Assembly: GCA_964423505.1 (NCBI GenBank) | Contig: CAYREX010000009.1 | Coordinates: 1 to 64,000 of the forward strand | Length of the DNA stretch: 64,000 nucleotides | Direction: 5' to 3' | From: an uncultured bacterium | GTDB taxonomy: Bacteria > Fermentibacterota > Fermentibacteria > Fermentibacterales > JCC-6 | Shown: piece by piece, positions 6,392-42,480 of the stretch | Numbering within the stretch: position 1 is the stretch's first letter | Layout of the letters: the number at the start of each line of letters is the position of its first letter | Position numbers and translations under genes: made by a program | The notes under the pieces: model-generated | Databases searched by the model: none | The model's input: the letters and a program-made list of their open reading frames with translations, nothing else | What the model was told of the DNA's origin: nothing

Positions 6392-6405
6392 CGAGGAAGG
6401 AAGAG

Positions 6406-7458: not shown

Positions 7459-8501
7459 CCGCCGCCGTACTGCTGGCGCTGCTCGCCTCGCTGCCACAGG
7501 GCAGCCCGGAGGCGGGCTACACGGCAACCTTCTCCATCGCCGCGGTGGACACGACAACCGGGGAGATGGGTATAGCCGTGGCCTCCTGCGTGCCCTTCGT
7601 CGGCAGGGACGTACCGTGGGCCCGGGCAGGCGTCGGAGCGGTCGCCACCCAGGCATGGGTGAACCAGTCCTACGGGCCGGACGGCCTGGCCCTCCTCGAG
7701 TCGGGCCACTCGCCGGCCATGGCGCTGGACAGCCTTCTGAAATGGGACCCGGACAGCGAGCAGAGGCAGGTGGGCATAGTCAGCGCCGCCGCCGAGGCGG
7801 TCAGCTTCACCGGCGCCGAGACGATGGACTGGGCCGGAGGGCTGACGGGGCCCGGCTACGCCGTGCAGGGCAACATCCTGGTGGGCGAGGATGTCGTCAC
7901 ATCCATGGAGGAGGCCTTCCTGGCGACGGAGGGGCCTCTGGCCGTTCGCCTGCTGGCCGCCCTGCAGTCCGGCGAGGACGCAGGCGGGGACAGCCGCGGC
8001 AGGCAGTCCGCCGCCATCCTGGTGGTGCGCGAGGGCGCGGGCCACGGAGGCTGCACCGATGTCTTCGTGGACATAGCCGTCTCCGACCATCCGGAGCCCA
8101 TTCCGGAGCTGTCCAGGCTCTACGGCATCTGGGAGCGCTGGTACGTGCTGCCTGTATACCTCGACGACGGGGAGGGGCCGGAGACCGAGTGGGCACTGGG
8201 CATCATCAACAGGGTCGCGGAGGAGTCCCCGGACGACCCCCAGGTGCTGAACTCGGTCGCCTGGGCGCTGGCCGAGAGGGGGCTGCACCCGGAGAGGGCT
8301 GTGGAGCTGGCCCTGCGGGCCCACGGGCTCGCCCCGGACGACCACAACATCATGGACACGGTGGCCACGGCCCACTACGCTGCGGGGGACTACGCCGAGG
8401 CGGTCCGCTGGGAGCGGAGCGCGCTGGAGCTGGACCCGGGCAACGAGTTCTACCTGGAGCAGCTGGAGCGCTTCCGGCAGGCGGCTGAGGAGCTGCAATG
8501 A
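7455..8501 (+). CDS. DUF1028 (Ntn-hydrolase-like) protein with C-terminal TPR region
   Basis: TFSIAAVDTTTGEMGIAVASCVPFVG signature of DUF1028; C-terminal TPR-like helices; GTGA overlap with the upstream gene. Confidence 0.6.
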   Translation: MTAAVLLALLASLPQGSPEAGYTATFSIAAVDTTTGEMGIAVASCVPFVGRDVPWARAGVGAVATQAWVNQSYGPDGLALLESGHSPAMALDSLLKWDPDSEQRQVGIVSAAAEAVSFTGAETMDWAGGLTGPGYAVQGNILVGEDVVTSMEEAFLATEGPLAVRLLAALQSGEDAGGDSRGRQSAAILVVREGAGHGGCTDVFVDIAVSDHPEPIPELSRLYGIWERWYVLPVYLDDGEGPETEWALGIINRVAEESPDDPQVLNSVAWALAERGLHPERAVELALRAHGLAPDDHNIMDTVATAHYAAGDYAEAVRWERSALELDPGNEFYLEQLERFRQAAEELQ

Positions 8502-8642
8502 CCTCTGACGGCAGGGGAGTACCCTAGGCTGGGTCGAGATGGAACTCCGACATGTGCGCAACACAGCTTATTGTTCGCTCCAGCAACGAAAGGACGTCTT
8601 GACGTTATGACTGCATGATCCCTCTGGAAGGAGAGGTGTATC

Positions 8643-8876
8643 ATGTCTGAGCTTACGAAAAGGGCCACTGTATACATTGATCCCGCTCTACACCGGGCGC
8701 TGCGGCTGAAATCCGTAGAGACTTCAAAATCCATGTCAGAGCTGATCAACGACGCAATTCGAGAAGAACCAGCAGAGGACGCTGAAGACCTGGCCATCTT
8801 CCCTGCGCGCCAGCACGAGCCAACCGTCACGTTCGAGGCCTTCGTTGAAGGACTGAAGCGTGATGGCAAGCTATAG
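8643..8876 (+). CDS. Ribbon-helix-helix (CopG/Phd-like) antitoxin
   Basis: 77 aa; directly upstream of, and overlapping, a RelE/ParE toxin gene; lies in a low-GC islet. Confidence 0.6.
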   Translation: MSELTKRATVYIDPALHRALRLKSVETSKSMSELINDAIREEPAEDAEDLAIFPARQHEPTVTFEAFVEGLKRDGKL

Positions 8877-9120
8877 GGTTCTCATCCGGAAATCGGTACG
8901 GAAAGACCTCGATGGAATCCCGAAGAAGGATGTGCAAGGAATCGTCAAGGCAATCAGCAGCCTAGCCGAGGATCCGCGACCGCGGCAATCCAAAAAGCTA
9001 TCTGGAGAAGAGAAGTACAGGCTTCGGTGCGGTTCTAACCGGGTGCCTTACGAGATCCAGGACAGGGAACCGGTTGTATACATCGTTCGAGCCAGGCATC
9101 GTAGAGACGCGTATAGATAG
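8860..9120 (+). CDS. RelE/ParE-family type II toxin
   Basis: 86 aa; YRVLIRKSVRKDLDGIPKKDVQGIVKAISSL...LSGEEKYRLRCGSNRVPYEI...VYIVRARHRRDAY is the RelE/ParE pattern. Confidence 0.7.
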   Translation: MMASYRVLIRKSVRKDLDGIPKKDVQGIVKAISSLAEDPRPRQSKKLSGEEKYRLRCGSNRVPYEIQDREPVVYIVRARHRRDAYR

Positions 9121-9138
9121 AAAGCGAACAACAGCATG

Positions 9139-9155
9139 CAGCAGCCTGGCTGCTG
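9139..9155. other. Perfect 8-bp inverted repeat CAGCAGCC-T-GGCTGCTG downstream of the toxin gene
   Basis: Read directly; no T-tract follows, so not a canonical intrinsic terminator. Confidence 0.3.
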
Positions 9156-9442
9156 ATGCTGAGCGGCCTCATCGCATACCCCAATCGCGCCAGCCAGGAA
9201 GGGTACTGATCCAACCTCTGCCCTGGCATAACTCAGGCATCAGCCCGAGCAACCCTTTTCACCAGTTCGAACGCCGACATGCCCTGAGTACGACTGAGAG
9301 CACCTCCCGTTTTTCAACTGACCTCTCTGCCAGGTGGCTCCGTTGTCCGAGCGATTCGTGAAGCCGGATTTCATCCGACAGTCGCCCGCGGGGCCATGCC
9401 TGGTATGACCGTATCTGCTCTCATGTTTGGGCATCGCTACCG

Positions 9443-10939
9443 TTATCGGGGTATGGACTGGCCGGCGCGCAGCCGCTCCAGGATGTCCTCGTGGGCCTCG
9501 GCCCTCTCCTCCATGCCCAGCTCCCTGGCCAGGAGCGCCGCCTGCGCGTGGCCCTGGTAGCGGGCGAGGGAGCCCTGGGGGGAGATGACCGCCTGCCTCT
9601 CGAAGAGCTCCAGGGCGGTCTCGCTGTCGCCCATGTCCAGCGCCCTGAAGGCCAGCGAGCCCACGTAGAGGTTCTCGGGCACCTCTGGGACCGGGTAGAG
9701 CAGCGCGGGGACCATCAGCAGGAGGCCGGCGGCCGCCTGGAGGACCGCCCTGCGCCTGCTGCTGCCGAAAGCCCTCGCCAGGGCCGTCCAGCCGGAGGCC
9801 GCCGCGGCGAGCATCAGCGGGAGCACCGGAAGGAAGTACCTCTCGGAGTGGACGAAGAGGAGCGCCGCGAGGAGGGTGACCGCTATGGGCAGCATTATCA
9901 CCGTCCTGCCGCTGCCGCTCCTCAGGAAGGGCACCAGGCCGGCCAAAAAGAGCCCGACGATGAGCCACCGGGGCAGGACGAGGAGCCTCAGGACCGGGCT
10001 GAAACGACCGGCCCTGCCCATCTCGTAGTAGGTGTCGAAGGGCCTGGCGCCGAAGAAGCCCCCCAGCTTCGTCATCAGCAGCCTCAGCTCCTCCGCAGGG
10101 TGGGAGGCGGCCCACTCGAGGGCCCGTCCGGTCCAGAACCGGTCGGCCTCGGCCGTGGTTGTGTGGCCGCTGTCGGCGGCAACCCGGAGGGCGACCGAGT
10201 GTATGTCCCCCTGGCCGGTCTCCAGGAGGCCCCATGAGGGCGCCGGTGGGCCGTAGCCGGTGGCGTCCGGGTTGTGGCCCAGGGCGAGGTTCAGGCCGGT
10301 GGAGACCGGGAAGGGCCTGAAGTCGCCGCCCGCCCTGCGGCTGCGGTGCGCCAGGAAGATGAGCGGCGCCATCATGGAGCAGAGCCCGACGACCAGGAGG
10401 AGCCATCTCTTCCTGCGCACCCAGTAGGCAGCCGGGACCAGGAAGGACAGCAGAAGCGGCGGCCTGAGGCCGGCGGCGAGGCCGGGGAGGAGGCCCTGAG
10501 CCGCCGCCCTGAGAGGGTTCTCGTCGTGGGAGATGGTGACGCAGGTGAAGACGGCCATGAGCAGCGCCAGGAAGGCAACCGGGAGCAGCGTCAGCTCCAC
10601 GAGGACCAGGGGGGCGTATAGCGACGCGGCCAGGGAGGCGAGGAAGGAGGGTAGGGGGGAGGCGCCGGCCCTTCGGGCGAGCCTCATGGTGAGCACCGCC
10701 GTGAGGACGCCCGCGACGCTCTGGGCCGCGAAGACGCCGGCCCTGCCTGCTCCCGCCGCGTAGAAGGGGAGTATCAGGAACCGGTACAGCGGGCTGGCGT
10801 AGGTGAAGGGGCCGGCGTCCCCCGTCCCTCCGGCGAGGGCGATGGCCGCCTGCTCGAACTTCCTGCATGCCAGGACCGGCCAGTAGTGGAGCCTGGCCGA
10901 CGCCGAAGTCGCCCAGACCGCGAAGTGGGCCGTGCGCAC
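9443..10939 (-). CDS. Integral-membrane GT-C fold glycosyltransferase-like protein (GT39/ArnT-like) with C-terminal TPR
   Basis: 498 aa, more than 10 predicted TM helices, C-terminal TPR-like region; GTG start. Confidence 0.5.
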   Translation of the reverse strand: MRTAHFAVWATSASARLHYWPVLACRKFEQAAIALAGGTGDAGPFTYASPLYRFLILPFYAAGAGRAGVFAAQSVAGVLTAVLTMRLARRAGASPLPSFLASLAASLYAPLVLVELTLLPVAFLALLMAVFTCVTISHDENPLRAAAQGLLPGLAAGLRPPLLLSFLVPAAYWVRRKRWLLLVVGLCSMMAPLIFLAHRSRRAGGDFRPFPVSTGLNLALGHNPDATGYGPPAPSWGLLETGQGDIHSVALRVAADSGHTTTAEADRFWTGRALEWAASHPAEELRLLMTKLGGFFGARPFDTYYEMGRAGRFSPVLRLLVLPRWLIVGLFLAGLVPFLRSGSGRTVIMLPIAVTLLAALLFVHSERYFLPVLPLMLAAAASGWTALARAFGSSRRRAVLQAAAGLLLMVPALLYPVPEVPENLYVGSLAFRALDMGDSETALELFERQAVISPQGSLARYQGHAQAALLARELGMEERAEAHEDILERLRAGQSIPR

Positions 10940-11020
10940 CGCCAGGGCAACGACACCCGCTGCCAGCTCCAGTCTCGCCAGGCGCCGGTCGCCACCCGTC
11001 CGGTTCGTCGAGGCAGCCCC

Positions 11021-11671
11021 CTAGTTGACCACCAGCTCGGTGAGCTTCATGTCCAGCATCATCCCCCCGGGCATCTCCGTGACGTCCCTCACCATGCCCG
11101 TGCCCCTGTGCAGGTAGTGGTCCCAGTACCAGCCCGGCTCCGCCGTGTCCCTCTCGCGGACGAGGGCGCAGTTGTCGAAGGCGCCGTACGGCACGTTGAG
11201 ATAGGCGCTCAGGGTGATGACCTCGTAGTAGACCGTGCTGCCCGGCTGCTCCTGCCACTCCTCGGCAACGACAAGCGGGTAGCTCAGGAATAGCTCGTAG
11301 TCCGTGGAGACGGTGTCCGGGTAGTTGAGGAGCCCCTCCTCGGTCTCGCGCAGGTAGATGACGCTCGTGTCGCGCTCGACCCAGGTGGAGCCGGCATAGC
11401 TGAGGTTGAACTCCATCAGCGACTCCAGGAGGTGGACCTGGAAGCCTCCCTGGTGGTCGAGGAGGTCGGTGACCCGGCGGTCGATGGTGCCGGTTACGTC
11501 GATGGTGTCCTGCTCGGTAGCACCGATGGCCCAGCCCTCGATCTGCGCGTTCCAGACGTTGCCGACGGACAGGGGCATCCAGCTGTCAGCCTCCGAGGGG
11601 CCGGTGCCGTCGCCGTCGCCGCAGGCGACCAGGAGCGCCGCTGCCGACGTCAATGCGATCATGGCTCTCAT
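11021..11671 (-). CDS. Lipoprotein of unknown function
   Basis: Start MRAMIALTSAAALLVACGDG (lipobox LVAC) preceded by RBS GGAGGGAGAGGAAGC; the ORF-track upstream extension to 11998 was rejected. Confidence 0.6.
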   Translation of the reverse strand: MRAMIALTSAAALLVACGDGDGTGPSEADSWMPLSVGNVWNAQIEGWAIGATEQDTIDVTGTIDRRVTDLLDHQGGFQVHLLESLMEFNLSYAGSTWVERDTSVIYLRETEEGLLNYPDTVSTDYELFLSYPLVVAEEWQEQPGSTVYYEVITLSAYLNVPYGAFDNCALVRERDTAEPGWYWDHYLHRGTGMVRDVTEMPGGMMLDMKLTELVVN

Positions 11672-11807
11672 GCTTCCTCTCCCTCCCGCCGCCGCTGCCT
11701 CGGCGGCCGTCTCACTATAACCAGAGAGGGGAGGGGGTACTAGCGCCCCGGTGGCGGTCGGCTTAGTATTCTCTCCGGGAGATGTCCAGAAAAGCTTGGA
11801 GGGTGCC

Positions 11808-14039
11808 ATGAGAGTCATTGCCGCTGCATGTCTGGTCCTGCCGGCCGCCCTTGCGGCCTGGCCGTCCTCGCTGCCGGGAGCCACCAACCCGCCGGAGGAG
11901 CCGATGCCGGTGACCGAGTACCTGGTGGACCAGGTGACCCGCTGCCCCGGGGGTGTGCCGGAGAGGGAGATGGTCTCCAGCCTCTCCAGGGATACCATCC
12001 CTCCGGAGTACGATCTGGTGGACGTGCTGGAGGAGGCCGTCTACGTGACCCCGGGCGACGAGTACGTGGTGGTGTTCGACCACTCCGAGGAGTCGCTGTC
12101 GGACACCCTGGTGCCCTACGAGCTGACCGCTCTGGCCTGGGACGCGGTGGAAGCCGCTCCCGGCTGGATGGAGGAGGACCTTGTCTGGGCCTTCCACCTG
12201 CTCTCCGAGGACAACCAGGACCGCTACGCCGAGGTGATACTGGACGTCGAGGACTCCCGGGTGATGGACGAGGTGGCCTTCCAGGTGGCGCACCTCTCGT
12301 GGACCAACATTGCCAATCCCTCCTGGGACGAGACCCTGCTGGAGAACAACGCGAACTGGATATACGAGATAGAGGACGACCTGCAGTACGTGCGGGTGAA
12401 CGACTACGGTGGCGATGACTACTACAGCACGACGGAGTACAGGTTCCTGGAGGGCACCGACGACACGGTGTGGGTGGAGATACCGCAGGAGATCTACTAC
12501 TGGTGGATAGTCATGCCGAAGGTCTCCGACGAGCTGCCGCTGCAGGACTCCTCGGTCTACGGCTACTTCTGGAGGGAGTACCTGTACACGCAGCACGACT
12601 CCGGCTACCCGCTCCTCTCCGAGGTCATGGCGCCGGTGGAGGTGCTGTGGGACGGCCTGGAGTACAACTGGGCCGGGGGCAGGCCGTTCACCGACGACAT
12701 GATGGCGGTTGACGCCATAGGCAACTGGTGCTCGGAGACCGTGCCCTACGCCGCCTCGGGGAACAGGCCCATACAGCCCAACGTCATAGCCCACGAGCAC
12801 GACGGCAACTGCGGCGAGCTGCAGGACCTGCTCTCCGCCGCCTGCAGGACCTGTCTGGTGCCGGCCCTCTGCACCATGGACATCCTGGAGGACCACGTCT
12901 GGTGCGAGATGTGGTGGGACGGCGAGTGGGTGCCGTACCAGGTGGAGCTGGGCGGCAACCGGACACAGATAAACAACCCGGGCATCGCCTACGACGCGGA
13001 TATGGGCGGCTCCAAGGAGTGCTCCTGCATCTGGGACTGGAGGAACGACGGCTGGAGCTGGCAGTCCATCGCCACCTACTCGCAGACCTGCACGCTCACG
13101 GTGGTCATCCGGGACTCCACCGGGGCCCCGGTGGACCACGCCAGGGTATCGATCGGCAGCGAGTCCTACTACCCGCCGTACAACGTCTCCAGGGGCACCT
13201 GGGCTGTCACCGACAGGCAGGGTGCGGCGACCTTCATCCTCGGCAACAACCAGAACTACTACGTCAGCATAGCCTCCCCGCTCGGCAACTACCCGGCCAG
13301 CGGCTGGGGGACGCTCATCGAGGACAGCGAGGCGGGGGAGCACTACCTCTGGGAGTGGACCACGCCGGACTCCGTGCCGGTGCCCGACGTCTCGGCCGAG
13401 ACAGAGGGGGAGATGACCGCCTACTTGCTGGAGGTGGAGTACGAGCTGCCCTTCGACGTGCAGCACGACCGCGACTTCTACGCCAACCCGAGGAACGAGT
13501 ACGCGCGGAGGCTCGAGGACGGCGTGCTCCGGCACTTCGTGGTGGACGGCACCAATCTCCAGGCCTACCTGGACGACCAGCCCTTCCAGGCGCTGGACCT
13601 GGTCGAGGGCGCCGGCGAGGCCAGGGTGCTCTGCTACCCCCGCTGGCAGAGGGACCGCTACGTGGTCCTCTCCGGCCGGTCCAACATCGGCCTCTCCACG
13701 ATGGCCGAGGTGAGCGTCAGCCTCTGGAGGCACGACGGCACCGGGGTGGAGGGCGCTGCGCCCCACGACCCGGCCGTATCCGCCGGTCCGAACCCCACGA
13801 CCGGCAGCTACTCGGTGAGCTTCGCCACCGCCTCCGCCGGGAAGGCGGTCCTCTCGGTCTACGACCTCGCAGGGAGGATGGTGGCCTCCGTGGAGAGCGG
13901 CGAGCTGGAGCCCGGCTCCCACCGGATCTCGTGGGACGGGACCGACTGGTCCGGCTCCCCCGCCTCCCGCGGCACCTACCTGGTGCGGCTCAGCGCTCCC
14001 GGGGTGCGGCACACCGGGAGGCTCCTGCTGCTGAGGTAG
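11808..14039 (+). CDS. Secreted transglutaminase-like cysteine peptidase domain protein with T9SS-type C-terminal sorting domain
   Basis: Signal peptide MRVIAAACLVLPAALAAWP; transglutaminase core GNCGELQDLLSAACRTCLVPA...DHVWCEMWWDGEWVPYQ (Cys-His-Asp); C-terminal AVLSVYDLAGRMVAS...SWDG...GTYLVRL tail shared with three other proteins in the window. Confidence 0.7.
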   Translation: MRVIAAACLVLPAALAAWPSSLPGATNPPEEPMPVTEYLVDQVTRCPGGVPEREMVSSLSRDTIPPEYDLVDVLEEAVYVTPGDEYVVVFDHSEESLSDTLVPYELTALAWDAVEAAPGWMEEDLVWAFHLLSEDNQDRYAEVILDVEDSRVMDEVAFQVAHLSWTNIANPSWDETLLENNANWIYEIEDDLQYVRVNDYGGDDYYSTTEYRFLEGTDDTVWVEIPQEIYYWWIVMPKVSDELPLQDSSVYGYFWREYLYTQHDSGYPLLSEVMAPVEVLWDGLEYNWAGGRPFTDDMMAVDAIGNWCSETVPYAASGNRPIQPNVIAHEHDGNCGELQDLLSAACRTCLVPALCTMDILEDHVWCEMWWDGEWVPYQVELGGNRTQINNPGIAYDADMGGSKECSCIWDWRNDGWSWQSIATYSQTCTLTVVIRDSTGAPVDHARVSIGSESYYPPYNVSRGTWAVTDRQGAATFILGNNQNYYVSIASPLGNYPASGWGTLIEDSEAGEHYLWEWTTPDSVPVPDVSAETEGEMTAYLLEVEYELPFDVQHDRDFYANPRNEYARRLEDGVLRHFVVDGTNLQAYLDDQPFQALDLVEGAGEARVLCYPRWQRDRYVVLSGRSNIGLSTMAEVSVSLWRHDGTGVEGAAPHDPAVSAGPNPTTGSYSVSFATASAGKAVLSVYDLAGRMVASVESGELEPGSHRISWDGTDWSGSPASRGTYLVRLSAPGVRHTGRLLLLR

Positions 14040-14166
14040 GGAGCGGTTGGCTCGCCGCGGGCCGGTCCCCGGAGGCTCCAGCTACCTCTACGTCGTGCTG
14101 CTCTCCGGCGGGGAGGGCGGCGCCGCGGGGGAGCCCACCGGCAGGGGCCGTGTCAGGGTAGGACGC

Positions 14167-14691
14167 ATGTCCGACGTGCGCGATACGCGGACGATTCTCC
14201 GCAGGTGCAGGTACAGGGGCGCGAGGAAGCTGCTCCGCGAGCACACCAGGCGGTACGAGGGCGACGGCGTGCGCTCACGGCACGAGGTGGGTCTGGCCCT
14301 GGAGAGGGAGCTGGCCGGGAGGCTGCGCAGGGAGGGGTGGACGGTGGCGAACCCACCTCCGGCGGCGGACTGCCACGTCTACGTAATAGAGGTGGACCCC
14401 GCGGTGCGGACCCACCGGGCCGTCAGGAGGGCCAACCCGGGGGCCGACCCCTCGAAGGCCTGCCTCTACGTCGGGAGGACGTCGCGGACCCCGGAGGAGC
14501 GCTTCCGGGAGCACCATGAGGGCGGCGGCCGGAAGAGGGGCGGCAGGCACCTCCGCGGCAGGTGCCTCAGGCTGCGGGAGGACATCTACGCGGTCTTCAA
14601 CCCGATGCCGGCGCTGGAGTCCTACGTGATGGAGCGGGAGCTGGCGGAGGACCTGCGCGCGGCGGGGCACACGGTGCTGGGGGGGCACTGA
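14167..14691 (+). CDS. GIY-YIG nuclease domain protein
   Basis: HVYVIEVD...LYVGRTSRTPEERFREH matches the GIY...YIG...R...H motif; Arg-rich; start chosen at MSDVRD. Confidence 0.5.
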   Translation: MSDVRDTRTILRRCRYRGARKLLREHTRRYEGDGVRSRHEVGLALERELAGRLRREGWTVANPPPAADCHVYVIEVDPAVRTHRAVRRANPGADPSKACLYVGRTSRTPEERFREHHEGGGRKRGGRHLRGRCLRLREDIYAVFNPMPALESYVMERELAEDLRAAGHTVLGGH

Positions 14692-14692
14692 G

Positions 14693-15046
14693 CTACTTCG
14701 GCGTCCCCTCGATGGCGCTGCTCACCATGCCCAGCACGACAAGGCCGGTCATCACCAGGGCGATGATGAGGGCGGCCTTCGCCCTGCGCGGGTACTCGCC
14801 CCTGTAGAGGAAGTAGAGAATCCAGGCAAGCGGGAAGAAGAAGAAGCAGAGGCATCCCAGTGCGGGGTTCAGGCGGTCCGGCGAGCGCTCGTGGTAGTGG
14901 TGGTGGACCTCCCTGACCACCCCCTGCTCCTCCGGCTTCCAGGTGGGGTCCAGCTCGCTCCTGTGGAACCGGGAGCCGCAGTACTCGCAGGCAAAGGTGT
15001 CGCCTTCCGGCGACGCTATCTGCGCGCTGCAGTTGGGGCACTTCAT
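14693..15046 (-). CDS. Zinc-ribbon (CPNC...CEYC) membrane protein
   Basis: 117 aa; N-terminal CxxC...CxxC, His-rich HHHYHER segment, two predicted TM helices. Confidence 0.45.
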   Translation of the reverse strand: MKCPNCSAQIASPEGDTFACEYCGSRFHRSELDPTWKPEEQGVVREVHHHYHERSPDRLNPALGCLCFFFFPLAWILYFLYRGEYPRRAKAALIIALVMTGLVVLGMVSSAIEGTPK

Positions 15047-15163
15047 CTGGTCCTCCGCTGGTGGTGTCTAACCCTCCCTCCGGCGCCCGATAATGTCCCC
15101 GCGGGGAGGCCCCTGGCAAGCGCCCGGCGTTGTCCGCCGGCCACCGGCCGGCTATCGTTCGGC

Positions 15164-26631: not shown

Positions 26632-27516
26632 GTGAAGGGGAACCGGGCCGGTCGGGCAGCAGCCGGGGTACGCAGGTACCTGACCCACGGGCCGCCGCTG
26701 GGGAGGAGCTCCCTGAGGGTCGGCATAGCCGCCCTGGGCCTGCTGGTCTGGGTCCTGGTGAGGCAGGTGCTGGCGGAGGCGGCCATGGCCATCTCCCCGG
26801 CCCTCTCCCTGCTGGACGGGCTGGGCATCGGCGGCGCGCTGGCCCTGGTGCTTCTGCTCCCGCTGTGGGACCTGACCTGCGTGGGCCTGCGCAGGGGCGT
26901 GCGCCACAGGTACCTGATGTTCGGCATGACCGCCGTCCTGCTCAGCCCCTTCGTGGTCATAGTCATCGTCTCCGGTCTGGAGCCCACCTCGTGGGACGGC
27001 TCGTGGGCCATCTCCTGCCTCACTCTGCTCCTGCTGGCCGCCGCCGAGGAGGTCCTCTGCCGCGGGTTCCTCATGGACAGCCTCTCCGTCGCCAACAGGA
27101 GGTCCGTCGGGCTCCTGCTCTCCGGCATCCTCTTCGGCGTCCTCCACGTGGGCAACGAGTCGGCTACCGTGCTGGGCATCATGAACATCATCCTCGCCGG
27201 CATCTTCTTCGGCATACTCCGCCTGATAAGCGGCGGCCTGGTCTACCCGGTCCTGGTGCACTGGGTATGGAACCTGCTCACCGGGATGGTGGTCGGATGG
27301 AGGGTGAGCGGCTACGCGGACCTGCCAAGCCTCTACCGGCCGGCGAAGTCCCCTCCATGGGGAGGGTTCGGGCCGGAGGGGTCGCTCCTGTTCACCTTCG
27401 CCGTCGTCTTCGCCATCGGCCTCGCGGTTGTGGAGGGCGCGGTGCATATTCCCCGGGGCCGCAGGGACCGGACGCGGGGCGGGGACAGACGGAAGGGAGC
27501 CCGGGAGCCGGGATGA
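26632..27516 (+). CDS. CPBP family intramembrane glutamic endopeptidase (CAAX protease-like)
   Basis: EEVLCRGFL, FGVLHVGN, HWVWN motifs; multiple TM helices; GTG start. Confidence 0.7.
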   Translation: MKGNRAGRAAAGVRRYLTHGPPLGRSSLRVGIAALGLLVWVLVRQVLAEAAMAISPALSLLDGLGIGGALALVLLLPLWDLTCVGLRRGVRHRYLMFGMTAVLLSPFVVIVIVSGLEPTSWDGSWAISCLTLLLLAAAEEVLCRGFLMDSLSVANRRSVGLLLSGILFGVLHVGNESATVLGIMNIILAGIFFGILRLISGGLVYPVLVHWVWNLLTGMVVGWRVSGYADLPSLYRPAKSPPWGGFGPEGSLLFTFAVVFAIGLAVVEGAVHIPRGRRDRTRGGDRRKGAREPG

Positions 27517-29759
27517 CCTACCTCCTCATTGCAGCGGCGGCAGTGTCGGCGACTCCCCGGTGGAGCCTCTCCACCTCGCTCACCCATGTGCTGGAGCTCT
27601 CGGAGGGCAGCGAAGGGGTGTGGGCCGCCACCACCGGCGGGGTCTTCCTCTACGACCCCTCCAGCGGCACCTTCCCGGAGACCCTGCAGTACCCCGACGG
27701 ACCGCCCGGAGTGATATGCACCGACGTGATGGAGACCGCCGGCGGCGCTCTCTGGGTCTCCACGCGGGAGGGGGGGCTGGCCCTCCGGCAGGGCGGCTCC
27801 TGGAGCTACTACACCAGCTTCGAGGGCATACCGGGCAGCGGCGGGACCAACTGCCTGGAGGAGGCGGGAGGATACGTCTGGGTCGGCACCGACATGGGCA
27901 TGGCCAGGGGAGGCGTCGAGGGCTTCGTGCCGGTGGACGAGTCCTCCTCCGGCGGCGCCTTCCCCACCGCCGACGTCACCGACATAGTCGCCTGCGGCGA
28001 CTCGCTCTGGGTGGCCACCGCCGAGGGGGTCTACCGTCTCGACCTCACCGGGAGCCCCTTCGTCCCGGGGGACTGGGCCCGGTTCGAGGAGACGGCCACG
28101 CTGGGCATCTACGACCTCGCCGTCGACCCGGACAGCGGCCAGCTCGGCGCCGGTCCCGCCGGGGTCTACATCAGGCGGGCGGAGCGCTGGGAGCCTTCGC
28201 TGGAGAGCGGGAACGTCACCGAGGTGGCCTGGACCTCCTGGGGCGCCGTGGCCGGCAGGAACGGGGTCTTCCTCCTGCGTGGGGGCAGCTGGGAGCGCAT
28301 AGGCGGGGAGTACCCGGAGTCGGTGATAGGCCTCTACTACGCGGACGGCTTCCTCGAGACGGGGATGGCGCCGGGCCTCCTCTGCGGGCTGGGCTCCTTC
28401 TCCTCCGAGGACATCGGATGGGGTCTCGGTCTCGGGTTGCTGCCTGACACGGCGGGCTCCTGGTCGGTGACGACCATCCCGGGACAGCCGGCGAAGAGCA
28501 TCTACCAGATCACCGTATCCGGCGACAGGCTCTACCTGGGGAGCCACAAGTCCGGCCTGCTCGGGAGCTTCCCGGAGGGCTGGAGGGTCTGGACCGTCGA
28601 CCAGGGGCTCCCGGCGCCGCTGCGGATATACGCCTGCGAGACCGACGGGGAGGACGGCGTCTGGTGCGCCGCATACCACTACGGTCTCACCTGGGTCGGC
28701 GGCGCCGCCACCTGGGACCCTTCGGACGACACGGTCCTGACCTTCGTGGCGGACAGCATACACGCTCCCTACGCCCCGTGGGTCTACTCTCCCCTGCTGA
28801 ACAACCAGGTCCTCATGCTGGAGCGGCAGGGCGACCATCTGTGGGTCCCGCAGGAGGCTTTCTGGCAGTCGCCGGACGAGCCGAGCGGGCTGGTCGCAGT
28901 GGGAGGCACCCCACGCGACACCGCCTCGATGACCTGGACCCTCTTCGAGCCGTCGCCGGACGGGCTTGCCCGGAAGAACCTGGGAGCCGTCCGGGCCTTC
29001 GACGGCGACATGCTCTGGGTCGACTTCCAGGGCGACAACGGATGCCAGCTTCTGGACCACGGTGGCACCCCGGAGGACCGCTCGGACGACACCTGGTATC
29101 CTGAGGGCGCACCCTTCGGGACCGACGACGGCCTCCCCTCCGGGCTGGTCTACTGCTTCGCCAGGGACTCGTCCGGCAACGTGCTGGTCGGCACCGGCGA
29201 CGGGCTGGCGATATACGACGGCGCCGGCTCCTTCAGCACCGTCAGCGGGGTAGGCGGCTCCGTGGAGGCGCTGGAGGTGGACTCCGGCGGCAGGATATGG
29301 TGCCTGGGCAGCGAGGGTATAACGGTGCTGTCCACGGAGGGTGTCACCGTCTACGACGCCTCCAACTCGCCCTACCTGCCCTACGAGCGGGTGGAGGCGG
29401 AGTTCTCGGCCCTGGCCGGCGGCGGTGACGGGGTGCTCTTCTCCTCCGGCACCGGCCTCTGGAGCGTCAGCCTGCCGGTCCCCGGCCCCCCCGACCGTGG
29501 CGGCGCCTGCTTCTACCCGCAGCCCTTCCTCCCCTCGGAGGGGGCGGTGTACCTCTGCGGCCTCCCCGAGGGGGAGGCGGTCACGGTGCGCCTCTTCGCC
29601 CTGGACGGAACGCCGGTGACCGAGGTGGGCGCGGCCTGCCCCGCCTCCTGGAGCTGGGACGGCACCGCCGGGGGCGAGGAGGCGGCGACCGGCATCTACA
29701 TCGCCGTGGTGGAGCAGTCCGGCTCGCTCGAGACGGTGAAGCTGGCGCTGGTCAGGTAG
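27513..29759 (+). CDS. Secreted beta-propeller (two-component-regulator-propeller/Y_Y_Y-like) protein with T9SS-type C-terminal domain
   Basis: 748 aa; repeated G-x-W/LWV-GT blades; C-terminal ...TVRLFALDGTPV...WSWDG...GIYIAVV tail; ATGA overlap with the CPBP gene. Confidence 0.6.
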   Translation: MTYLLIAAAAVSATPRWSLSTSLTHVLELSEGSEGVWAATTGGVFLYDPSSGTFPETLQYPDGPPGVICTDVMETAGGALWVSTREGGLALRQGGSWSYYTSFEGIPGSGGTNCLEEAGGYVWVGTDMGMARGGVEGFVPVDESSSGGAFPTADVTDIVACGDSLWVATAEGVYRLDLTGSPFVPGDWARFEETATLGIYDLAVDPDSGQLGAGPAGVYIRRAERWEPSLESGNVTEVAWTSWGAVAGRNGVFLLRGGSWERIGGEYPESVIGLYYADGFLETGMAPGLLCGLGSFSSEDIGWGLGLGLLPDTAGSWSVTTIPGQPAKSIYQITVSGDRLYLGSHKSGLLGSFPEGWRVWTVDQGLPAPLRIYACETDGEDGVWCAAYHYGLTWVGGAATWDPSDDTVLTFVADSIHAPYAPWVYSPLLNNQVLMLERQGDHLWVPQEAFWQSPDEPSGLVAVGGTPRDTASMTWTLFEPSPDGLARKNLGAVRAFDGDMLWVDFQGDNGCQLLDHGGTPEDRSDDTWYPEGAPFGTDDGLPSGLVYCFARDSSGNVLVGTGDGLAIYDGAGSFSTVSGVGGSVEALEVDSGGRIWCLGSEGITVLSTEGVTVYDASNSPYLPYERVEAEFSALAGGGDGVLFSSGTGLWSVSLPVPGPPDRGGACFYPQPFLPSEGAVYLCGLPEGEAVTVRLFALDGTPVTEVGAACPASWSWDGTAGGEEAATGIYIAVVEQSGSLETVKLALVR

Positions 29760-34272: not shown

Positions 34273-35328
34273 ATGGTGAAGACGACAACGGCGGCTCTGG
34301 CCGCCTTCGTCCTGATGACCGCCGCCTGCGGAGACGCCACCGGCCCCTCCGGCTCCACCGGGCTCTTCGGATGGGCCGTGGGCAGCCGGTCGGACGGCTA
34401 CGCGTTCATAGCCGCAACGGGCGACGGCGGAATCACCTGGAGCAGGCAGGGCGACGGCTCGCTGCCGGACGTGCAGCTGGAAGGCGTCAGGGCGCTGGAC
34501 TCGCTGACCGCATGGGCCGTCGGAGACGTGGCGGACGGATACGGCACCGTCCTGCGCACGACCGACGGCGGCGAGACGTGGGTCCGCCTCGGCACCTCCC
34601 AGGAGCTGCCTGCCTGCGGACTGAACGGCGTCAGCCCACTGGACGCCGACAGGGCCTACGTCGCCGGGTGCGACAACACGGTGCTCTACACCGGCGACGG
34701 CGGCGGCACCTGGGTGTCGCTTTCGGACCCGGCCTATGCCGGTTACGACTACGACTGCGTCCTGGCCCTCTCCGGGTCCGTCCTCTGGCTGGTCGGCGGC
34801 AACGAGCAGGAGGGCGTCATCCTCCGCTCGACCGACGGCGGCGCTTCCTGGGAGAGCCGGGGCGACTCGCTCCTGCTCTCCGGGTATCCGCTCATCACCC
34901 TCAGCGCCGTCAGCGAGTCCGAGGCCTGGGTCGTCGGGCACGGGTACACCGTGGCCCGTACCACGGACGCCGGAGAGAGCTGGACGCTGCACGTGCCCGA
35001 CGGCCTGGAGCGGAGTCCCTTCAGCGACGACGCCAACGGCGTTGCGGCCCTCGCAGACGGCCGAGTGGTGGTCAGCATGGACTACGGAAAGCTCTACGCC
35101 TCCGTCGACAGCGGCCGGAGCTGGACCGGGCAGCAGGTGGAGATGCAGGACTTCCTGCTGGGCGTATGCGCAATGCCGGACGGGCACGCATGGGTGGCCG
35201 GCACCTCCTCCTCCTTCGACGGGGGGAGCCTGCAGCACACCTCGACATGGGGTCCGCAGTGGTACGTGCAGGACATACCGGACTGCCCGGCCCTCCGCGA
35301 CGTCCACTTCGTCGGGGCGGTGCATTGA
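34273..35328 (+). CDS. Lipoprotein with Ycf48/BNR-like beta-propeller repeats
   Basis: Lipobox LMTAACGD; repeated TxDGGxTW motifs. Confidence 0.55.
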   Translation: MVKTTTAALAAFVLMTAACGDATGPSGSTGLFGWAVGSRSDGYAFIAATGDGGITWSRQGDGSLPDVQLEGVRALDSLTAWAVGDVADGYGTVLRTTDGGETWVRLGTSQELPACGLNGVSPLDADRAYVAGCDNTVLYTGDGGGTWVSLSDPAYAGYDYDCVLALSGSVLWLVGGNEQEGVILRSTDGGASWESRGDSLLLSGYPLITLSAVSESEAWVVGHGYTVARTTDAGESWTLHVPDGLERSPFSDDANGVAALADGRVVVSMDYGKLYASVDSGRSWTGQQVEMQDFLLGVCAMPDGHAWVAGTSSSFDGGSLQHTSTWGPQWYVQDIPDCPALRDVHFVGAVH

Positions 35329-35668: not shown

Positions 35669-36421
35669 GGGGACAACTCGACGATTGCTCAGGCTGAGCA
35701 GACAAGGCTGATCTCTTTCCTGAACGCCGGGGGCGGGCTCTACATCGAGGGCGCAGACTTCGGCTACAACAACTCCGGCAGCGCCATCTACGAAGTCTTC
35801 GGCTGCAGCTACGACGGCGACGGCAGCTCCTCGGGCAACGTCCAGGACGTGGCCGGCGTCACCGGCACGATGCTGGACGGCATAGCCTGCGACTACATCC
35901 ACGACACCGGCCCCGACAGCTACGTCGACGAGATATCCGCCGACGAGGGCACGCTCCTGATGCGCTCCCAGGACGGCAAGGGCAGGGCCGTCTGTTGGGA
36001 GGGGGCCGGCGGCACCTACAGGGCCCTGCACTCCAGCGTCATCTTCGGCGCCCTCCGCGACGGAACCTCCACGAAGCGGGAGCTCATGGAGACGTACATG
36101 GGCTACCTCACCGGCAGCACCGGGGTCGGGGAGAGCTCCGGGGGCCTGACGCCCGCCGGGCTCGCCCTCGAGTACGCGAACCCCGCCAGGGGGACGGTCG
36201 AGCTGACCGCCACCGTACCAGGGGGGGAGGCGGACATCAGCGTCTACGACCTCACCGGAAGGCTGGTGGGGACCATCCACGGCGGACAGCTCCGGCCCGG
36301 TACCCACCGCTTCTCCTGGGACGGCCGTGCGGACACCGGGACCAGGCTGCCCGGAGGGACCTACGTGGTGCGTCTGGGAACGGAGCAGGGGAGCGTCACC
36401 GGTACGCTCCTGCTCATCTAG
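35669..36421 (+). pseudogene. Continuation of the same frame: C-terminal part of the T9SS cargo protein (interrupted gene, or UGA-recoded)
   Basis: Same frame as 35405 (both equal 2 mod 3); no in-frame ATG/GTG/TTG until 35849; carries the T9SS C-terminal domain ...DISVYDLTGRLVGT...FSWDG...GTYVVRL. Confidence 0.5.
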
Positions 36422-36493: not shown

Positions 36494-38296
36494 TCAGTCG
36501 GCGACGACGAAGCTCCGGGTAGCGTCCTGCCGATCGCATCTCATCCTGAGGAAGTATACCCCCGGCTCGAGAGGCGAGAGCCGGAAGACCTTCCGCCCTC
36601 TCGACAGACTCCGCTCTTCCATCCGGTCTATGATCCTGCCCGAGACATCGAAGAGCTGGAACGAGACCAGTGCATCGGCGGGCAGCGTGAGAGTCACCAC
36701 GACCGGGCCTGCGGCCGGATTGGGGGCTATCGAGAAGAGGGGGGTCCGGTCGGCGAGGGGGCAGCGGTCATCCTCGATGCTCACCGGGTCCCAGAGCAGC
36801 GAGACCGACTTCAGCATGGGAGACACCGCCCTGGCGCTACCGTCCGAATGGAGGATGGCCCGGTACTGGAAGTGGCTGGAGAACGGGGGGAGGACCGTAT
36901 CCAGCCTGCAGGGAGCATGGAGGGTGTCGCTCCATGGGCCCATGTCCGAGGGATCATCCGATGCCCTTACCTGGAATGTCACGACGGCGCCCGGGAACTC
37001 GTCGGACTCCCAGGTGAGCTCACCCCATCCCGGGTCGCCATGAAGGTATAGAATGCTCGATTCCAGGTGTCCGGAGGAGGCCAGCTCCATCTCCCACCTG
37101 CGTGCGGTGTTGATCCGCCCGGCGACGATGTCCGTTATGCCGTCATTGTCCAGATCCCCGGAGTCCACCGACCAGCCGTGACCCCCGACGTAGTGCCCCA
37201 TCCAGAGGGTACCGGTACCGTCGGCATTCTCCCACCACAGAAGACCTCCCTGGTAGTAGAAGAGGGAGATGATGTCCGGATCTCCGTCGCCATCAACGTC
37301 ATCCGTATGGATGTCGGTACAGCCGGAGCCCACGGTGCTCACATCGTTCCTGACCCAGGAAGGTCCCGGTCCGCTCCAGTCCCCGGGATTCCGAAACCAG
37401 ACGACTCCGTTCGAGAGGTTATCTCCCACGACGATGTCATTGTATCCGTCGGAGTCGATGTCGCATATGCTGCAGCCACCCCGAACGGAGTACCCGGTGT
37501 CGATGACATGCCTTGTCCAGTCCGCTCCCGCCTCCTCGCCGTTCTCCCACCATACGACCGGGCCGTTGTCTTCCGTAACGGTAACCGCATCGGCATCACC
37601 GTCACCATCAATGTCCCCCGCGCATACGTCCATCGTTCCGTAGGCGGTACAGATCCGATGCTTCACCCATGACCCGCCTGCGCCATCGGCGTTCTCATAC
37701 CATACGACCTCGCGACTGCCGCAGGCGGCCACATCGATGTCCCCGTCGCCGTCCATGTCGAGCGCTTCGATATCGCGGGCATCGAGCAGGCCGTACGCGA
37801 TCAGGTTGATGGTCCAGTCTCCCGGGAGATGAGCAGGGTCCCTCCGCCACCAGACGACCATGTCATGGTAGATCGAGGCAGCTACGATATCGGTGATGCC
37901 GTCCCCGTCGAAGTCCGCGGTCTCGACTCCAAGCACCTGCTCGAAGTCGTAGACGTCGTGCTGAACCCATGTCTCCCCGGAACCATCCACATTGTGCCAC
38001 CACACGACTTCGTCTTCGCATCCGGCTATTACGTCGCTGTTGCCGTCTCCGTCGATATCGTCGATGGTGATTGACCTGCACCAGGAGACCCCTCCGATGA
38101 GGTAGTCGGGGGGGGTCAGTCTGAGGTTCTCGTCGCCGGCCCACCAGCAGACGGATGATGAGGAATAGAAGTAGCTCTCCCATTCGGAGAGCGGCCCCGG
38201 CACCCCGGGACCATCGATCCAGGAGCTCTGCCTTTCGATGTTCGCCAGGGAAGCGGACAGGATCAGGATACACGGGAGAGTCAAACCGATCATCAT
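36494..38296 (-). CDS. Secreted FG-GAP/VCBS-repeat protein with T9SS-type C-terminal domain
   Basis: Start MMIGLTLPCILILSASLA after RBS GAGGTG; repeated DxDGDGxxD FG-GAP motifs; C-terminal ...LVSFQLFDVSGRII...GVYFLRM tail. The ORF-track extension to 39646 is antisense to a real gene and was rejected. Confidence 0.7.
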   Translation of the reverse strand: MMIGLTLPCILILSASLANIERQSSWIDGPGVPGPLSEWESYFYSSSSVCWWAGDENLRLTPPDYLIGGVSWCRSITIDDIDGDGNSDVIAGCEDEVVWWHNVDGSGETWVQHDVYDFEQVLGVETADFDGDGITDIVAASIYHDMVVWWRRDPAHLPGDWTINLIAYGLLDARDIEALDMDGDGDIDVAACGSREVVWYENADGAGGSWVKHRICTAYGTMDVCAGDIDGDGDADAVTVTEDNGPVVWWENGEEAGADWTRHVIDTGYSVRGGCSICDIDSDGYNDIVVGDNLSNGVVWFRNPGDWSGPGPSWVRNDVSTVGSGCTDIHTDDVDGDGDPDIISLFYYQGGLLWWENADGTGTLWMGHYVGGHGWSVDSGDLDNDGITDIVAGRINTARRWEMELASSGHLESSILYLHGDPGWGELTWESDEFPGAVVTFQVRASDDPSDMGPWSDTLHAPCRLDTVLPPFSSHFQYRAILHSDGSARAVSPMLKSVSLLWDPVSIEDDRCPLADRTPLFSIAPNPAAGPVVVTLTLPADALVSFQLFDVSGRIIDRMEERSLSRGRKVFRLSPLEPGVYFLRMRCDRQDATRSFVVAD

Positions 38297-38509
38297 ACAC
38301 CTCGATAGATAACTGCAGAAGAACGCACCGGGCGTCAACGTGCCGGCCAACTGGAGGACGAAGCTCTGCGCGGATGACATCGTCGAGCGTGGATGACCGC
38401 TCCCCGCCGACCGACCGGCGGGAGCTGCGTCGCCGGGGAGAGAGAGATCCGGCATCCCCGCCGGTTGGCTATATTGGGGTGGTCCGGTCAACAGGATGGA
38501 GGGAAGACA

Positions 38510-39628
38510 ATGAGATCTGCCGTCACCACGATAGCCGTCATCGCCCTGCTGGTCGCCTGCGGCGGCGGGGAACCGGAACCCGCAGCCGATGATGCGATAA
38601 CGCTTCCCGTCGACACTCTTCGGGTCGGACTGGAGATCGGAGAGGAGATAGGGGATTCCACCACTACGTTCGGCGCCATAGCCGCCGCCACGATAGACGA
38701 CCGGGGCAGGCTGATAGTCGTGGACCAGGCCGCCGCCTGCCTGAAGGTCTACGACCTGGACGGCAGCTACATCCGGCAGGTCTCGCGTCGGGGGTCCGGG
38801 CCGGGGGAGCTCGTGATGCCGTGGGACCTCTTCACCATGCCGGACGGCAGGCTGGTGGTGGTCGCTCCGGGGAAGCAGGGCTTCGTGGTCTTCGACGATT
38901 CGCTCGAGTTCGTCGAGGAGGTCGCGCTCTGGGCCCAGAATCCCCCCTTCCAGCCCGTGGCGGTCTCCGACAGCAGCTTCGTGGGGTACAAGATAGGCCA
39001 GGACATGCGCGACGAGACAATAGTCATGCGCCGCGCCGTGGCCATCTTCCAATGGGGCGAGGAGGACTGGGACACGGTCCTCTGGAAGGACTCCATAGAG
39101 GCGAGCATGAGCGAGATAATGGAGGACCCTTCCGTCTTCATCATCGACCTGATCGACCCGCTGAGCATCGGCGGTGGACCCCGGCAGGGGATATTCTTCG
39201 CCCTCAAGGACGCCTACGACTACAGCGTCACCGGCTGGGACACCTCCGGCACCGAGATACTCTCCATCCGGATGGACCTCTCCCCGGTGGAGAAGACCGA
39301 GCAGGAGATGGCCGACGAGAGCCTCTACGTAAACAGCTACATCGAGAGGATAAGCGGGGGAGGCGGCTCTCCCTTCGAGTTCAACCCGGACCCTCACAGG
39401 GACATGGTCATAGGCCTGGACATCGGCCCGGACGGCAACCTCTGGGTACGGAGGGGTACCACGAACGCCCCCTTCTTCGACATCTACGACCTCGAGGGCG
39501 ACCTCCTGGGCCACGCCGTCTACCCGGACAGCGCCTGGAGCTGGCGGACCGAGATAACGCCCCACGGCATCGTCGCCTGGGAGGACGACCCGCTGGAGGG
39601 TTACCAGAAGCTCTACCTGCTGGAATAG
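38510..39628 (+). CDS. Lipoprotein, 6-bladed beta-propeller (TolB/NHL-like)
   Basis: Start MRSAVTTIAVIALLVACGG (lipobox) after RBS GGAGGG; repeats GRLIVVD / DGRLVVV / DGNLWV. Confidence 0.55.
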   Translation: MRSAVTTIAVIALLVACGGGEPEPAADDAITLPVDTLRVGLEIGEEIGDSTTTFGAIAAATIDDRGRLIVVDQAAACLKVYDLDGSYIRQVSRRGSGPGELVMPWDLFTMPDGRLVVVAPGKQGFVVFDDSLEFVEEVALWAQNPPFQPVAVSDSSFVGYKIGQDMRDETIVMRRAVAIFQWGEEDWDTVLWKDSIEASMSEIMEDPSVFIIDLIDPLSIGGGPRQGIFFALKDAYDYSVTGWDTSGTEILSIRMDLSPVEKTEQEMADESLYVNSYIERISGGGGSPFEFNPDPHRDMVIGLDIGPDGNLWVRRGTTNAPFFDIYDLEGDLLGHAVYPDSAWSWRTEITPHGIVAWEDDPLEGYQKLYLLE

Positions 39629-41220: not shown

Positions 41221-42480
41221 GTGTCGCTTCTGGAGCGGTACTGGGCGGTCCTCCTGCTCGCCGCCCTGCTCGTCTGCCTGCTGACCATCCTGCTCGAGAC
41301 ATCCTGGCCTGTGGCCAGGGTGGAGGTCGTCACCATCCCCTCCGGAGCGCTGCTCACCGCCGGTAACGGCTGGAGGTGGACCTCTCCCGCGCTTGTGCCG
41401 GTGCCCGACGAGGGCATCAGGCTCACCGCGACCCATCCTGACAGGATGCCGGTCGACACGCTGCTCACCACCGAGGAGGGCGGCGGTCGGCTCACCATCA
41501 TCCTGCCCTACACCTTCCCGGTCACGGTCACCAGCCGGCCACCCGGCGCTACCGTACTGCTGGACGGGGAGTACCGCGGGGTTACCCCGGTCTCTCTCGA
41601 GCTGGGCGCCCCCGGGACCTACCCGCTGAAGCTGACCAGCCAGGGGGTGGTGACCCTCCGGGACAGCGTTACCCTGGCCAGCAACGCGCCGGAGTCGCTC
41701 CACTACGTGCTGCCCGAGCTGCGGGAGGAGGGGATGCTCCTCGTCCGGAGGGAGTCGGTGGAGGGCTCGGAGCTGCCGCCCGGGCAGGAGGCCCTGCTCC
41801 CGGACAGCTTCCTCATCGGCAGGTACGAGGTCACCGCGCTGGAGTACCTCGGGTACCTGGCGGCGATGGAGCCCGACCCGGGCCAGGAGGAGGACCCCTA
41901 CAGGTGGAACAGGACCGAGACCTTCGAGTCCATCTTCCCCGGTGACTACCCGCTCCCGTACTACCAGGGGAACGGTGGGGGGTGGCAGGTGATGGAGGGG
42001 CTGCAGCACCACCCGGTGCCGGGGGTCTGCTACGATGCCGCCATGGACTACTGCCGGTGGCTCACCGAGACGAGGGAGGACGGGCTGACCTACAGGCTGC
42101 CCACCGAGGCGGAGTGGCGGGCGGCGGCGCAGGCCGGTGGCGACGGCCCCTGGCCCTGGGGGGCCACGGCGCCCTTCAGCGGGCTTCTGAACCTCTCCGA
42201 CTCGAACGAGATGATACTCCGGAGGCATCCTTCCATCGACGACGGTTTCTCCGAGACCGCCCCGGTGGGAAGCTATCCGCCGAACGGATGGGGTCTCTAC
42301 GACATGGCCGGGAACCTGTGGGAGTGGTGCGCCCCGGCCCCGGGCGACAGCCAGCCGGTCGCCATGGGCGGGAGCTGGCTCTCGTCGGCGGAGGACTGCA
42401 GGTGCGACTCGAGGATGGTGCCGGAGCCCGGCCTGGGCTTCCCGTTCGTCGGGTTCAGGCTGGCGGCGGACCCGGACTGA
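41221..42480 (+). CDS. Membrane-anchored tandem-PEGA / formylglycine-generating-enzyme (FGE-sulfatase, SUMF1-like) domain protein
   Basis: N-terminal TM helix; two PEGA-like beta domains; C-terminal FGE signature GWGLYDMAGNLWEWC...GGSW. Confidence 0.7.
   Translation: MSLLERYWAVLLLAALLVCLLTILLETSWPVARVEVVTIPSGALLTAGNGWRWTSPALVPVPDEGIRLTATHPDRMPVDTLLTTEEGGGRLTIILPYTFPVTVTSRPPGATVLLDGEYRGVTPVSLELGAPGTYPLKLTSQGVVTLRDSVTLASNAPESLHYVLPELREEGMLLVRRESVEGSELPPGQEALLPDSFLIGRYEVTALEYLGYLAAMEPDPGQEEDPYRWNRTETFESIFPGDYPLPYYQGNGGGWQVMEGLQHHPVPGVCYDAAMDYCRWLTETREDGLTYRLPTEAEWRAAAQAGGDGPWPWGATAPFSGLLNLSDSNEMILRRHPSIDDGFSETAPVGSYPPNGWGLYDMAGNLWEWCAPAPGDSQPVAMGGSWLSSAEDCRCDSRMVPEPGLGFPFVGFRLAADPD

Follow-up and report, generated by a model that had tools for sequence, protein, structure and literature searches.

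The stretch of DNA analysed here (contig CAYREX010000009.1, positions 1 to 64,000; hereafter the window) carries four genes, P1 to P4, whose products all end in a beta-sandwich tail of about 85 amino acids (aa) that runs to the stop codon and that we read as a type IX secretion system (T9SS) C-terminal domain. At the N-terminus of each of the four, and of their orthologues, stands a leader that by eye looks like a signal peptide and is conserved in type across the orthologues. P1 (11808..14039, forward strand, 743 aa) consists of a signal peptide, a transglutaminase-like core (Pfam Transglut_core, 35.4 bits) with the conserved triad residues Cys335, His363 and Asp396, an immunoglobulin (Ig)-like middle domain and the tail (aa 655-743, 13770..14036, forward strand), within which the domain matches span aa 661-739. 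P2 (27513..29759, forward strand, 748 aa) has a short leader followed by two beta-propellers with a Reg_prop match and a C-terminal domain (aa 663-748, 29499..29756, forward strand), while P4 (36494..38296, reverse strand, 600 aa) combines a signal peptide, six FG-GAP/VCBS repeats (Pfam FG-GAP_3, 136.9 bits) and a canonical T9SS type-A C-terminal domain (aa 521-600, 36497..36736, reverse strand). P3 (35405..36421, forward strand) comprises a signal peptide, an uncharacterised domain with a Cys-UGA dyad and the tail (aa 250-338, 36152..36418, forward strand). A first-pass annotation had named a transglutaminase-like, a propeller and an FG-GAP passenger, all of which were recovered with Pfam, and had listed four open reading frames, of which those of P1, P2 and P4 are intact and that of P3 is broken by an in-frame TGA, the mechanical reading frame within it covering 35849..36421 only.

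The sequence motif proposed in that annotation for all four C-termini is complete in P1 (LSVYDLAGRMV...SWDG...GTYLVRL) and in P3 (ISVYDLTGRLV...SWDG...GTYVVRL), the two tails being 46% identical across 81 aa, and is only partial in P2 (VRLFALDGTPV...SWDG...GIYIAVV) and in P4, which has FQLFDVSGRII and GVYFLRM and is without SWDG. Leave-one-out hidden Markov models (HMMs), each built from three tails and run against the six-frame translation of the window, found P1 (E=5e-17), P3 (E=2e-18) and P4 (E=7e-4) and missed P2 (E=0.78). The shared tail is therefore real but uneven across the four proteins, and since the leave-one-out search fails to recover P2, the membership of its tail is shown only through its family profile. 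Across 18 orthologues the P2 tail is conserved as FYPQPF...WxWDG...SGVY...KLAVVR, and it is colinear both with the other tails of the window and with the tail of P0029, a bona fide PorZ. No fifth tail was found in the six-frame scan of the window. The tail thus sits on four unrelated passengers, always at the very end and once per protein, a distribution which suggests that it behaves like a sorting signal.

Identification of the domain itself draws on curated models, on orthologue families and on structure. The TIGR04183 model for the T9SS type-A sorting domain (cutoff 23 bits) is passed by P1 (26.6 bits), P3 (25.6 bits) and P4 (29.6 bits), and the Pfam model Por_Secre_tail (PF18962, cutoff 27 bits) by P4 only (28.6 bits). 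Among the orthologues of P1, which form more than 120 clusters of 730-755 aa, closer members bear FlgD_ig (PF13860) as the precomputed Pfam label of the tail, members with 43-46% identity bear PF18962, and several have both labels; several of these orthologues carry the NCBI title 'T9SS type A sorting domain-containing protein [Ca. Fermentibacterota]'. The tails of this family align colinearly, their main difference being a 5-residue 'WDGxD' loop that is rewarded by the FlgD_ig model; because the two labels alternate on colinear tails of one orthologous family, they mark one homologous domain. When a profile built from 14 tails (A2) is compared with solved structures, its whole length is matched by T9SS C-terminal domains, in every case at the end of the chain, namely PorZ 5m11 at residues 674-758 (E=1.2e-6), RgpB 5hfs, 7pq4, 5ag8 and 5ag9, PorU 6za2, and also the Flavobacterium johnsoniae cargo chains 8glj_D and 8glk_D, whereas FlgD chains are matched at core positions 20-76 only. 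In addition, an AlphaFold2 (AF2) model of the P1 tail (predicted local distance difference test, pLDDT, 96.9) has seven strands, and its best match in the PDB is the C-terminal domain of PorU 6za2, with a template modelling (TM) score of 0.78, compared with 0.62 for mirolase, 0.59 for PorZ, 0.54 for RgpB and 0.59-0.67 for FlgD. A homology search with the tail profile A2 alone returned only 19 short fragments and gave no census of cargo.

Like the type-A domains of Porphyromonas gingivalis RgpB, PorU and PorZ and of F. johnsoniae cargo, the tails of the window are seven-strand Ig-like sandwiches of about 80-90 aa at the extreme C-terminus of signal-peptide proteins, and they share with the Bacteroidota domains the 'PNP' strand at the N-terminus, two further strands of the patterns 'hYDhxGRhV' and 'GxYhh+h', and a last strand that is basic, as well as the modular attachment to unrelated passengers. 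They differ from these domains in their host, a member of the Fermentibacterota, and in that many copies carry a 'WDGxDxxG' loop which lifts the FlgD_ig score. The Ig domain of the FlgD hook cap (PF13860; 3c12, 3osv, 7eh9) has a beta-sandwich core and WDG/GxY motifs in common with the tails; however, the tail-bearing proteins here are signal-peptide enzymes and repeat proteins rather than flagellar parts. We found no FlgD-specific parts in them, the NCBIfam FlgD equivalog models reaching 35-38 bits, on the Ig part only, against cutoffs of 230-383, and identity with the FlgD hook-cap protein was rejected, as these cutoffs were failed and the N-terminal and Tudor parts of FlgD are lacking. Sequence profiles and the fold model thus support the view that the tails are T9SS type-A C-terminal domains. 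The sorting tail recognised in the first-pass annotation is borne out, and the FlgD-Ig label that it had offered as an alternative, although the strongest Pfam label in P1 and P3, denotes the same homologous domain and not a competitor.

A further difference from the Bacteroidota domains lies at the very end of the tails. Arg is the last residue of nearly all aligned Fermentibacterota tails in the families of P1 and P2 (...LLR, ...VVR), relatives of P3 with low GC mostly have Lys there, and among the window's own tails those of P1 and P2 end in Arg, that of P3 in Ile and that of P4 in Asp. The Arg and Lys endings may reflect a shift from Lys to Arg driven by guanine-plus-cytosine (GC) content or a lineage-specific terminal motif. 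The relatives of P1 also include proteins of about 987 aa (P0088, P0095, P0098, P0121, P0123, P0124 and P0126) that bear FG-GAP/VCBS repeats and have no tail label in precomputed Pfam; judging by their domain composition, they are a domain-swapped variant of the P1 transglutaminase-like family.

P2 stands apart from the other three proteins. Its closest characterised counterpart is PorZ (PG1604; 5m11), the subunit of the PorQ-U-V-Z attachment complex that delivers anionic lipopolysaccharide (A-LPS). P2 resembles PorZ in its length of about 750 aa, in its two Reg_prop-type propellers followed by a C-terminal domain and in a profile alignment that runs from end to end, and differs from a true PorZ in being only about 26% identical to one. 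The alignment of the P2 family (A1, 18 members, 39-52% identity) matches PorZ 5m11 with E=4.9e-15 in a single stretch of about 280 residues, and hhalign pairs it with P0029, which scores 384.1 bits on the PorZ equivalog model, over 686 columns with 99.4% probability (E=3.6e-21). The AF2 model of P2 (pLDDT 84.6) has a TM score of 0.61 to PorZ 5m11 and of just 0.35 to the propellers of hybrid two-component sensors, although the E-values are similar. On this evidence from profiles and the model, P2 is a divergent PorZ-family protein. The NCBIfam PorZ model itself (NF052228) matches P2 with 32.5 bits over aa 583-740, and because the equivalog cutoff is 260 we do not file P2 as a PorZ equivalog. 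Of two Aegiribacteria proteins, the P2 orthologue P0012 scores 36.4 bits on the same model and a second paralogue 115.4 bits, and since these loci thus hold a second copy closer to PorZ, P2 may be a PorZ paralogue instead of an orthologue. Where the first-pass annotation counted four cargo proteins, we therefore retain P1, P3 and P4, and P2 is probably a component of the T9SS rather than ordinary cargo.

In Aegiribacteria and related loci (L085-L088; L087 at 3071-15092), the P2 orthologue lies inside a cluster or operon for surface-glycan synthesis, which contains GT2, FemAB-like, MurB-like, epimerase and NTP-transferase genes together with the second propeller-plus-tail paralogue. According to published work (PMC8545088), PorZ delivers anchoring A-LPS to PorU, and the location of the P2 orthologue in a glycan cluster fits this published role. 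In contrast, P2 in the window directly follows a gene for an Rce1-like CPBP intramembrane protease (26632..27516), which overlaps the start of P2 by ATGA; the same arrangement is present on the Logan contig L001 and is not found in more distant orthologues.

The genome that hosts these genes can be placed by their nearest relatives. Those of P2 with a name belong to Ca. Fermentibacteria (49% identity), Fermentibacterales (46%) and Aegiribacteria (40%), and those of P1 to Ca. Fermentibacterota (53%), Fermentibacteraceae, Sabulitectum and Fermentibacteria, with TA06 and WOR-3 coming next. An exact 40-mer had no match in the representative genomes of GTDB, and a scan based on PGK gave no placement, the best identity among the matches listed being 54% and these matches being scattered across many phyla. 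Fermentibacterota is a candidate phylum within the Fibrobacteres-Chlorobi-Bacteroidetes (FCB) group, and GC content is 65-71% across the whole window, so the high-GC lineage with an FCB-style secretion system that had been suspected agrees with both. The exact proteins are present on an NCBI contig of 107,707 bp. The same genes occur on short Logan contigs of 4-9 kb from the runs SRR15425350 and SRR15425351, where they were found for TIM, P1 and P3. Taken jointly, these results make it likely that the window comes from the chromosome of a high-GC member of the Fermentibacterota, or of a close sister lineage, and that it encodes three cargo proteins with T9SS type-A tails and one PorZ-family component.

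Several observations weigh against this interpretation and have to be set beside its rivals. P1 and P3 reach only 18-19 bits on Por_Secre_tail, below its cutoff, while FlgD_ig is their strongest Pfam match at 49.9 bits (P1) and 46.2 bits (P3), far above their TIGR04183 scores; P2 alone matches neither tail model; and FlgD-Ig-like domains are also present in proteins of organisms without a T9SS. The strength of FlgD_ig in P1 and P3 would be expected if the tails were generic FlgD-type Ig-like structural modules, serving as spacers or in adhesion and having no role as a secretion signal, and so would the finding that FlgD chains are the best-scoring PDB sequence matches of the tail profile (E=4e-9) and the FlgD-like Ig domains that a fold search found in Vpr and C5a peptidase, neither of them a T9SS protein. 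A generic module does not, however, account for a tail that always forms the last 85 or so residues, once per protein and on unrelated passengers, nor for orthologues whose label changes to Por_Secre_tail; the full-length matches, including the 'PNP' and terminal strands, are to T9SS C-terminal domains only, the scores on the FlgD equivalog models lie far below cutoffs of at least 230 bits, and a PorZ homologue is present. We therefore regard the generic-module explanation as unlikely. A chance or low-complexity likeness of beta-rich C-termini would be compatible with the failure of the leave-one-out HMM on P2 and with the weak match of the 'YDxxG' strand to blades of NHL-type propellers, yet it is effectively refuted by the identity between the P1 and P3 tails, the passing of curated cutoffs, the retention of the tail across orthologue families and the confident fold model.

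The remaining objections concern the secretion system as such and the lineage. Among the approximately 53 genes of the window, essentially all of which were scanned with Pfam and NCBIfam, there is no SprA/Sov, PorV, PorU, GldK/L/M/N, PorP or PorT. A PEGA-FGE-sulfatase protein at 41221..42480 was tried as GldK/PorK (TIGR03525) and rejected, as it scores 73.3 bits against a cutoff of 350 and is not followed by gldLMN; from its domain matches it has a GldK-like fold but is not GldK, being a generic FGE-sulfatase domain after a PEGA domain. The lineage assignment, for its part, is based on the names of homologues that share only 40-53% identity. It could be argued that the tails are a sorting signal which leads into another outer-membrane pathway, or into a much reduced one, instead of a canonical T9SS, as apart from the PorZ-like protein no core T9SS gene lies within the 64 kb, P2 itself falls below the PorZ equivalog cutoff, and no literature was found that ties names beginning with Fermentibacter to T9SS or to secretion systems. 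T9SS genes are usually dispersed around genomes, however, so their absence from 64 kb tells little; the homology between P2 and PorZ extends from end to end; and to our knowledge no other pathway uses this tail domain. We consider such an alternative pathway improbable, and favour a T9SS as the destination of the tails.

Following the Bacteroidota paradigm, the three cargo proteins, namely the transglutaminase-like enzyme P1, the FG-GAP repeat protein P4 and the small Cys-UGA dyad protein P3, each with a Sec signal peptide and a tail, would be exported by the Sec pathway into the periplasm, where the folded tail would be recognised by the T9SS translocon formed by SprA/Sov with PorV. The proteins would then cross the outer membrane, and a PorU-type sortase might cut off the tail, leaving the proteins either bound to a surface glycan or free. 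The PorZ-like P2 could act in this scheme within the attachment complex, in which PorZ presents to PorU the glycan used for anchoring. The identity, fold and terminal position of the tail domain, its modular passengers, the lineage and the homology of P2 to PorZ are shown by the sequences and models, whereas we infer that the remaining machinery exists, that secretion takes place and that the tails are cleaved.

The tails and the PorZ-family protein widen the sequence-level evidence for T9SS to the uncultured FCB phylum Fermentibacterota. A paper of 2024 (PMC11285876) states that further phyla of the FCB group may have T9SS as well, and our literature searches returned no paper discussing a secretion system of organisms whose names begin with Fermentibacter and none pairing them with T9SS. 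This part of our results is well supported but unsurprising, being expected for a phylum of the FCB group and because the NCBI pipeline already labels P1 orthologues as T9SS type A; its practical value is modest for the same reason, as annotation pipelines already assign the T9SS label. It does imply that annotations of 'FlgD Ig-like' domains in FCB genomes should not be taken as flagellar, the two Pfam labels alternating within one family. The unexpected result, and in our opinion the one with more potential, is P3 as a candidate protein with a vicinal pair of Cys and selenocysteine.

The in-frame TGA of P3 (35666..35668, forward strand) is codon 88 of the gene and, in the context 'LGWYRC*GDNSTI', stands straight after a conserved Cys; we propose it as a selenocysteine codon, by which the peptide across this position would read ...GWYRC-U-GDNSTIAQAEQTR. 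The same TGA is seen again in two independent Logan assemblies. In a search of 1.84 billion representative proteins, the closest relatives of P3 are proteins of 235-242 aa that start just past the stop position, and for a relative of 44% identity on a 1-kb contig the upstream frame reads 'YDIVFVTLGFYRC*GDNSLIG'. A metagenome scan for the family added 35 loci with a GC content of 36-49%. In the set of 34 sequences that consists of the window, the NCBI contig and the metagenome loci including the UGA position (GC 36-68%), the position is TGA in 34 of 34 and TAA or TAG in none. The residue before it is the conserved Cys, replaced by Thr in two cases, and coding conservation extends to both sides, with 'GW[YF][RD]C' before and '[GS]D[NC]' after the codon, an upstream segment of 81-96 aa that includes the signal peptide, and a downstream part of about 250 aa that ends in the T9SS tail in most members. 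Since 32 of the 51 genes of the window end in TGA in the usual way, the genetic code is not reassigned. In our reading of these sequences, the genes of this family are apparently split at the UGA by gene callers.

Seventeen nucleotides (17 nt) after the UGA begins a hairpin resembling a selenocysteine insertion sequence (SECIS), with a 6-bp stem and a 5-nt G-rich loop (35685..35701, forward strand; alignment A5). Among 31 distinct sequences, 89.8% of the cells in this alignment are paired, compared with 34-51% when the partner is slid, and compensatory double changes are found at three of the six pairs, where UA has become CG in five sequences, and CG has become AU in two and GC in one; the covariation score was reached by none of 500 shuffles. 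The stem includes ATT and GCT, codons ending in T, in a genome with a GC content of 68%, which is consistent with selection on the RNA. This argument for recoding has to contend with RNAalifold returning no consensus structure for the hairpin alignment, with the unremarkable single-sequence fold of the region (z=-1.07), with the lack of an Rfam match, and with distant full-length homologues that have N, S, P or C at the position of the UGA and not a conserved Cys. The 64-kb window contains no tRNA.

SECIS-dependent decoding of UGA in bacteria follows the paradigm of Escherichia coli fdhF, and a vicinal Cys-selenocysteine pair forms the Gly-Cys-Sec-Gly end of animal thioredoxin reductase. P3 resembles known selenoproteins in the retention of its in-frame UGA in divergent homologues, in the adjacent Cys and in a small hairpin with a G-rich loop, a putative SECIS, that follows closely after the UGA. 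Unlike the end of thioredoxin reductase, the dyad of P3 is internal and lies in an uncharacterised domain, for which searches found no relative in Pfam, NCBIfam or the PDB and gave only weak hints of Flavodoxin_5 and ThuA; also unlike the known Cys-selenocysteine proteins cited, P3 combines a signal peptide with a T9SS tail, its selenocysteine being putative and read from sequence. Overall, the conservation and covariation make it probable that the UGA of P3 is recoded. That P3 represents an undescribed and widespread family of Cys-selenocysteine proteins, in which a domain of unknown fold class is flanked by a signal peptide and a T9SS tail, is a more tentative suggestion, which we regard as plausible but short of probable. 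If true, a new selenoprotein family that gene callers systematically split at the UGA would be added, a selenoprotein would be found among T9SS substrates, and in Fermentibacterota, as well as in many low-GC bacteria of sediments, a selenol-based redox protein would reach the cell surface by way of T9SS; nothing relevant was found in the literature that joins terms beginning with seleno to T9SS or sorting domains.

A subgroup of the UGA family (loci L114, L115 and L117-L119) is without the T9SS tail and ends about 152 aa after the UGA; the N-terminal part of these members is longer and has a leader like that of lipoproteins. From these sequences, the family seems to use two distinct modes of anchoring for the Cys-UGA domain.

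The approximately 53 genes of the window otherwise form an ordinary chromosomal neighbourhood that includes alanyl-tRNA synthetase (AlaRS), PFK-GAPDH-PGK-TIM, RuvX, YceG, ParE/ParC-like, P-type ATPase and glycan-synthesis genes. Exported proteins are grouped around P3 and P4 (34273..39628), with a BNR/Ycf48-like lipoprotein at 34273..35328 and a lipoprotein with an NHL-type six-bladed propeller at 38393..39628; the latter gives a weak false-positive match to the tail HMM through its 'YDLDG' blade motif. Lastly, an island of about 900 bp at 8500..9440 has a GC content of 51-57% within the 68%-GC genome. A structured RNA was rejected for this low-GC gap, z being about 0 on both strands and Rfam giving no match there. 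The open reading frames 8643..8876 and 8860..9120 (both forward strand) of the island are an overlapping pair of a ribbon-helix-helix (RHH)-antitoxin-like gene and a ParE-toxin gene (ParE_toxin, 37.8 bits), and the island is probably an acquired type II toxin-antitoxin cassette.

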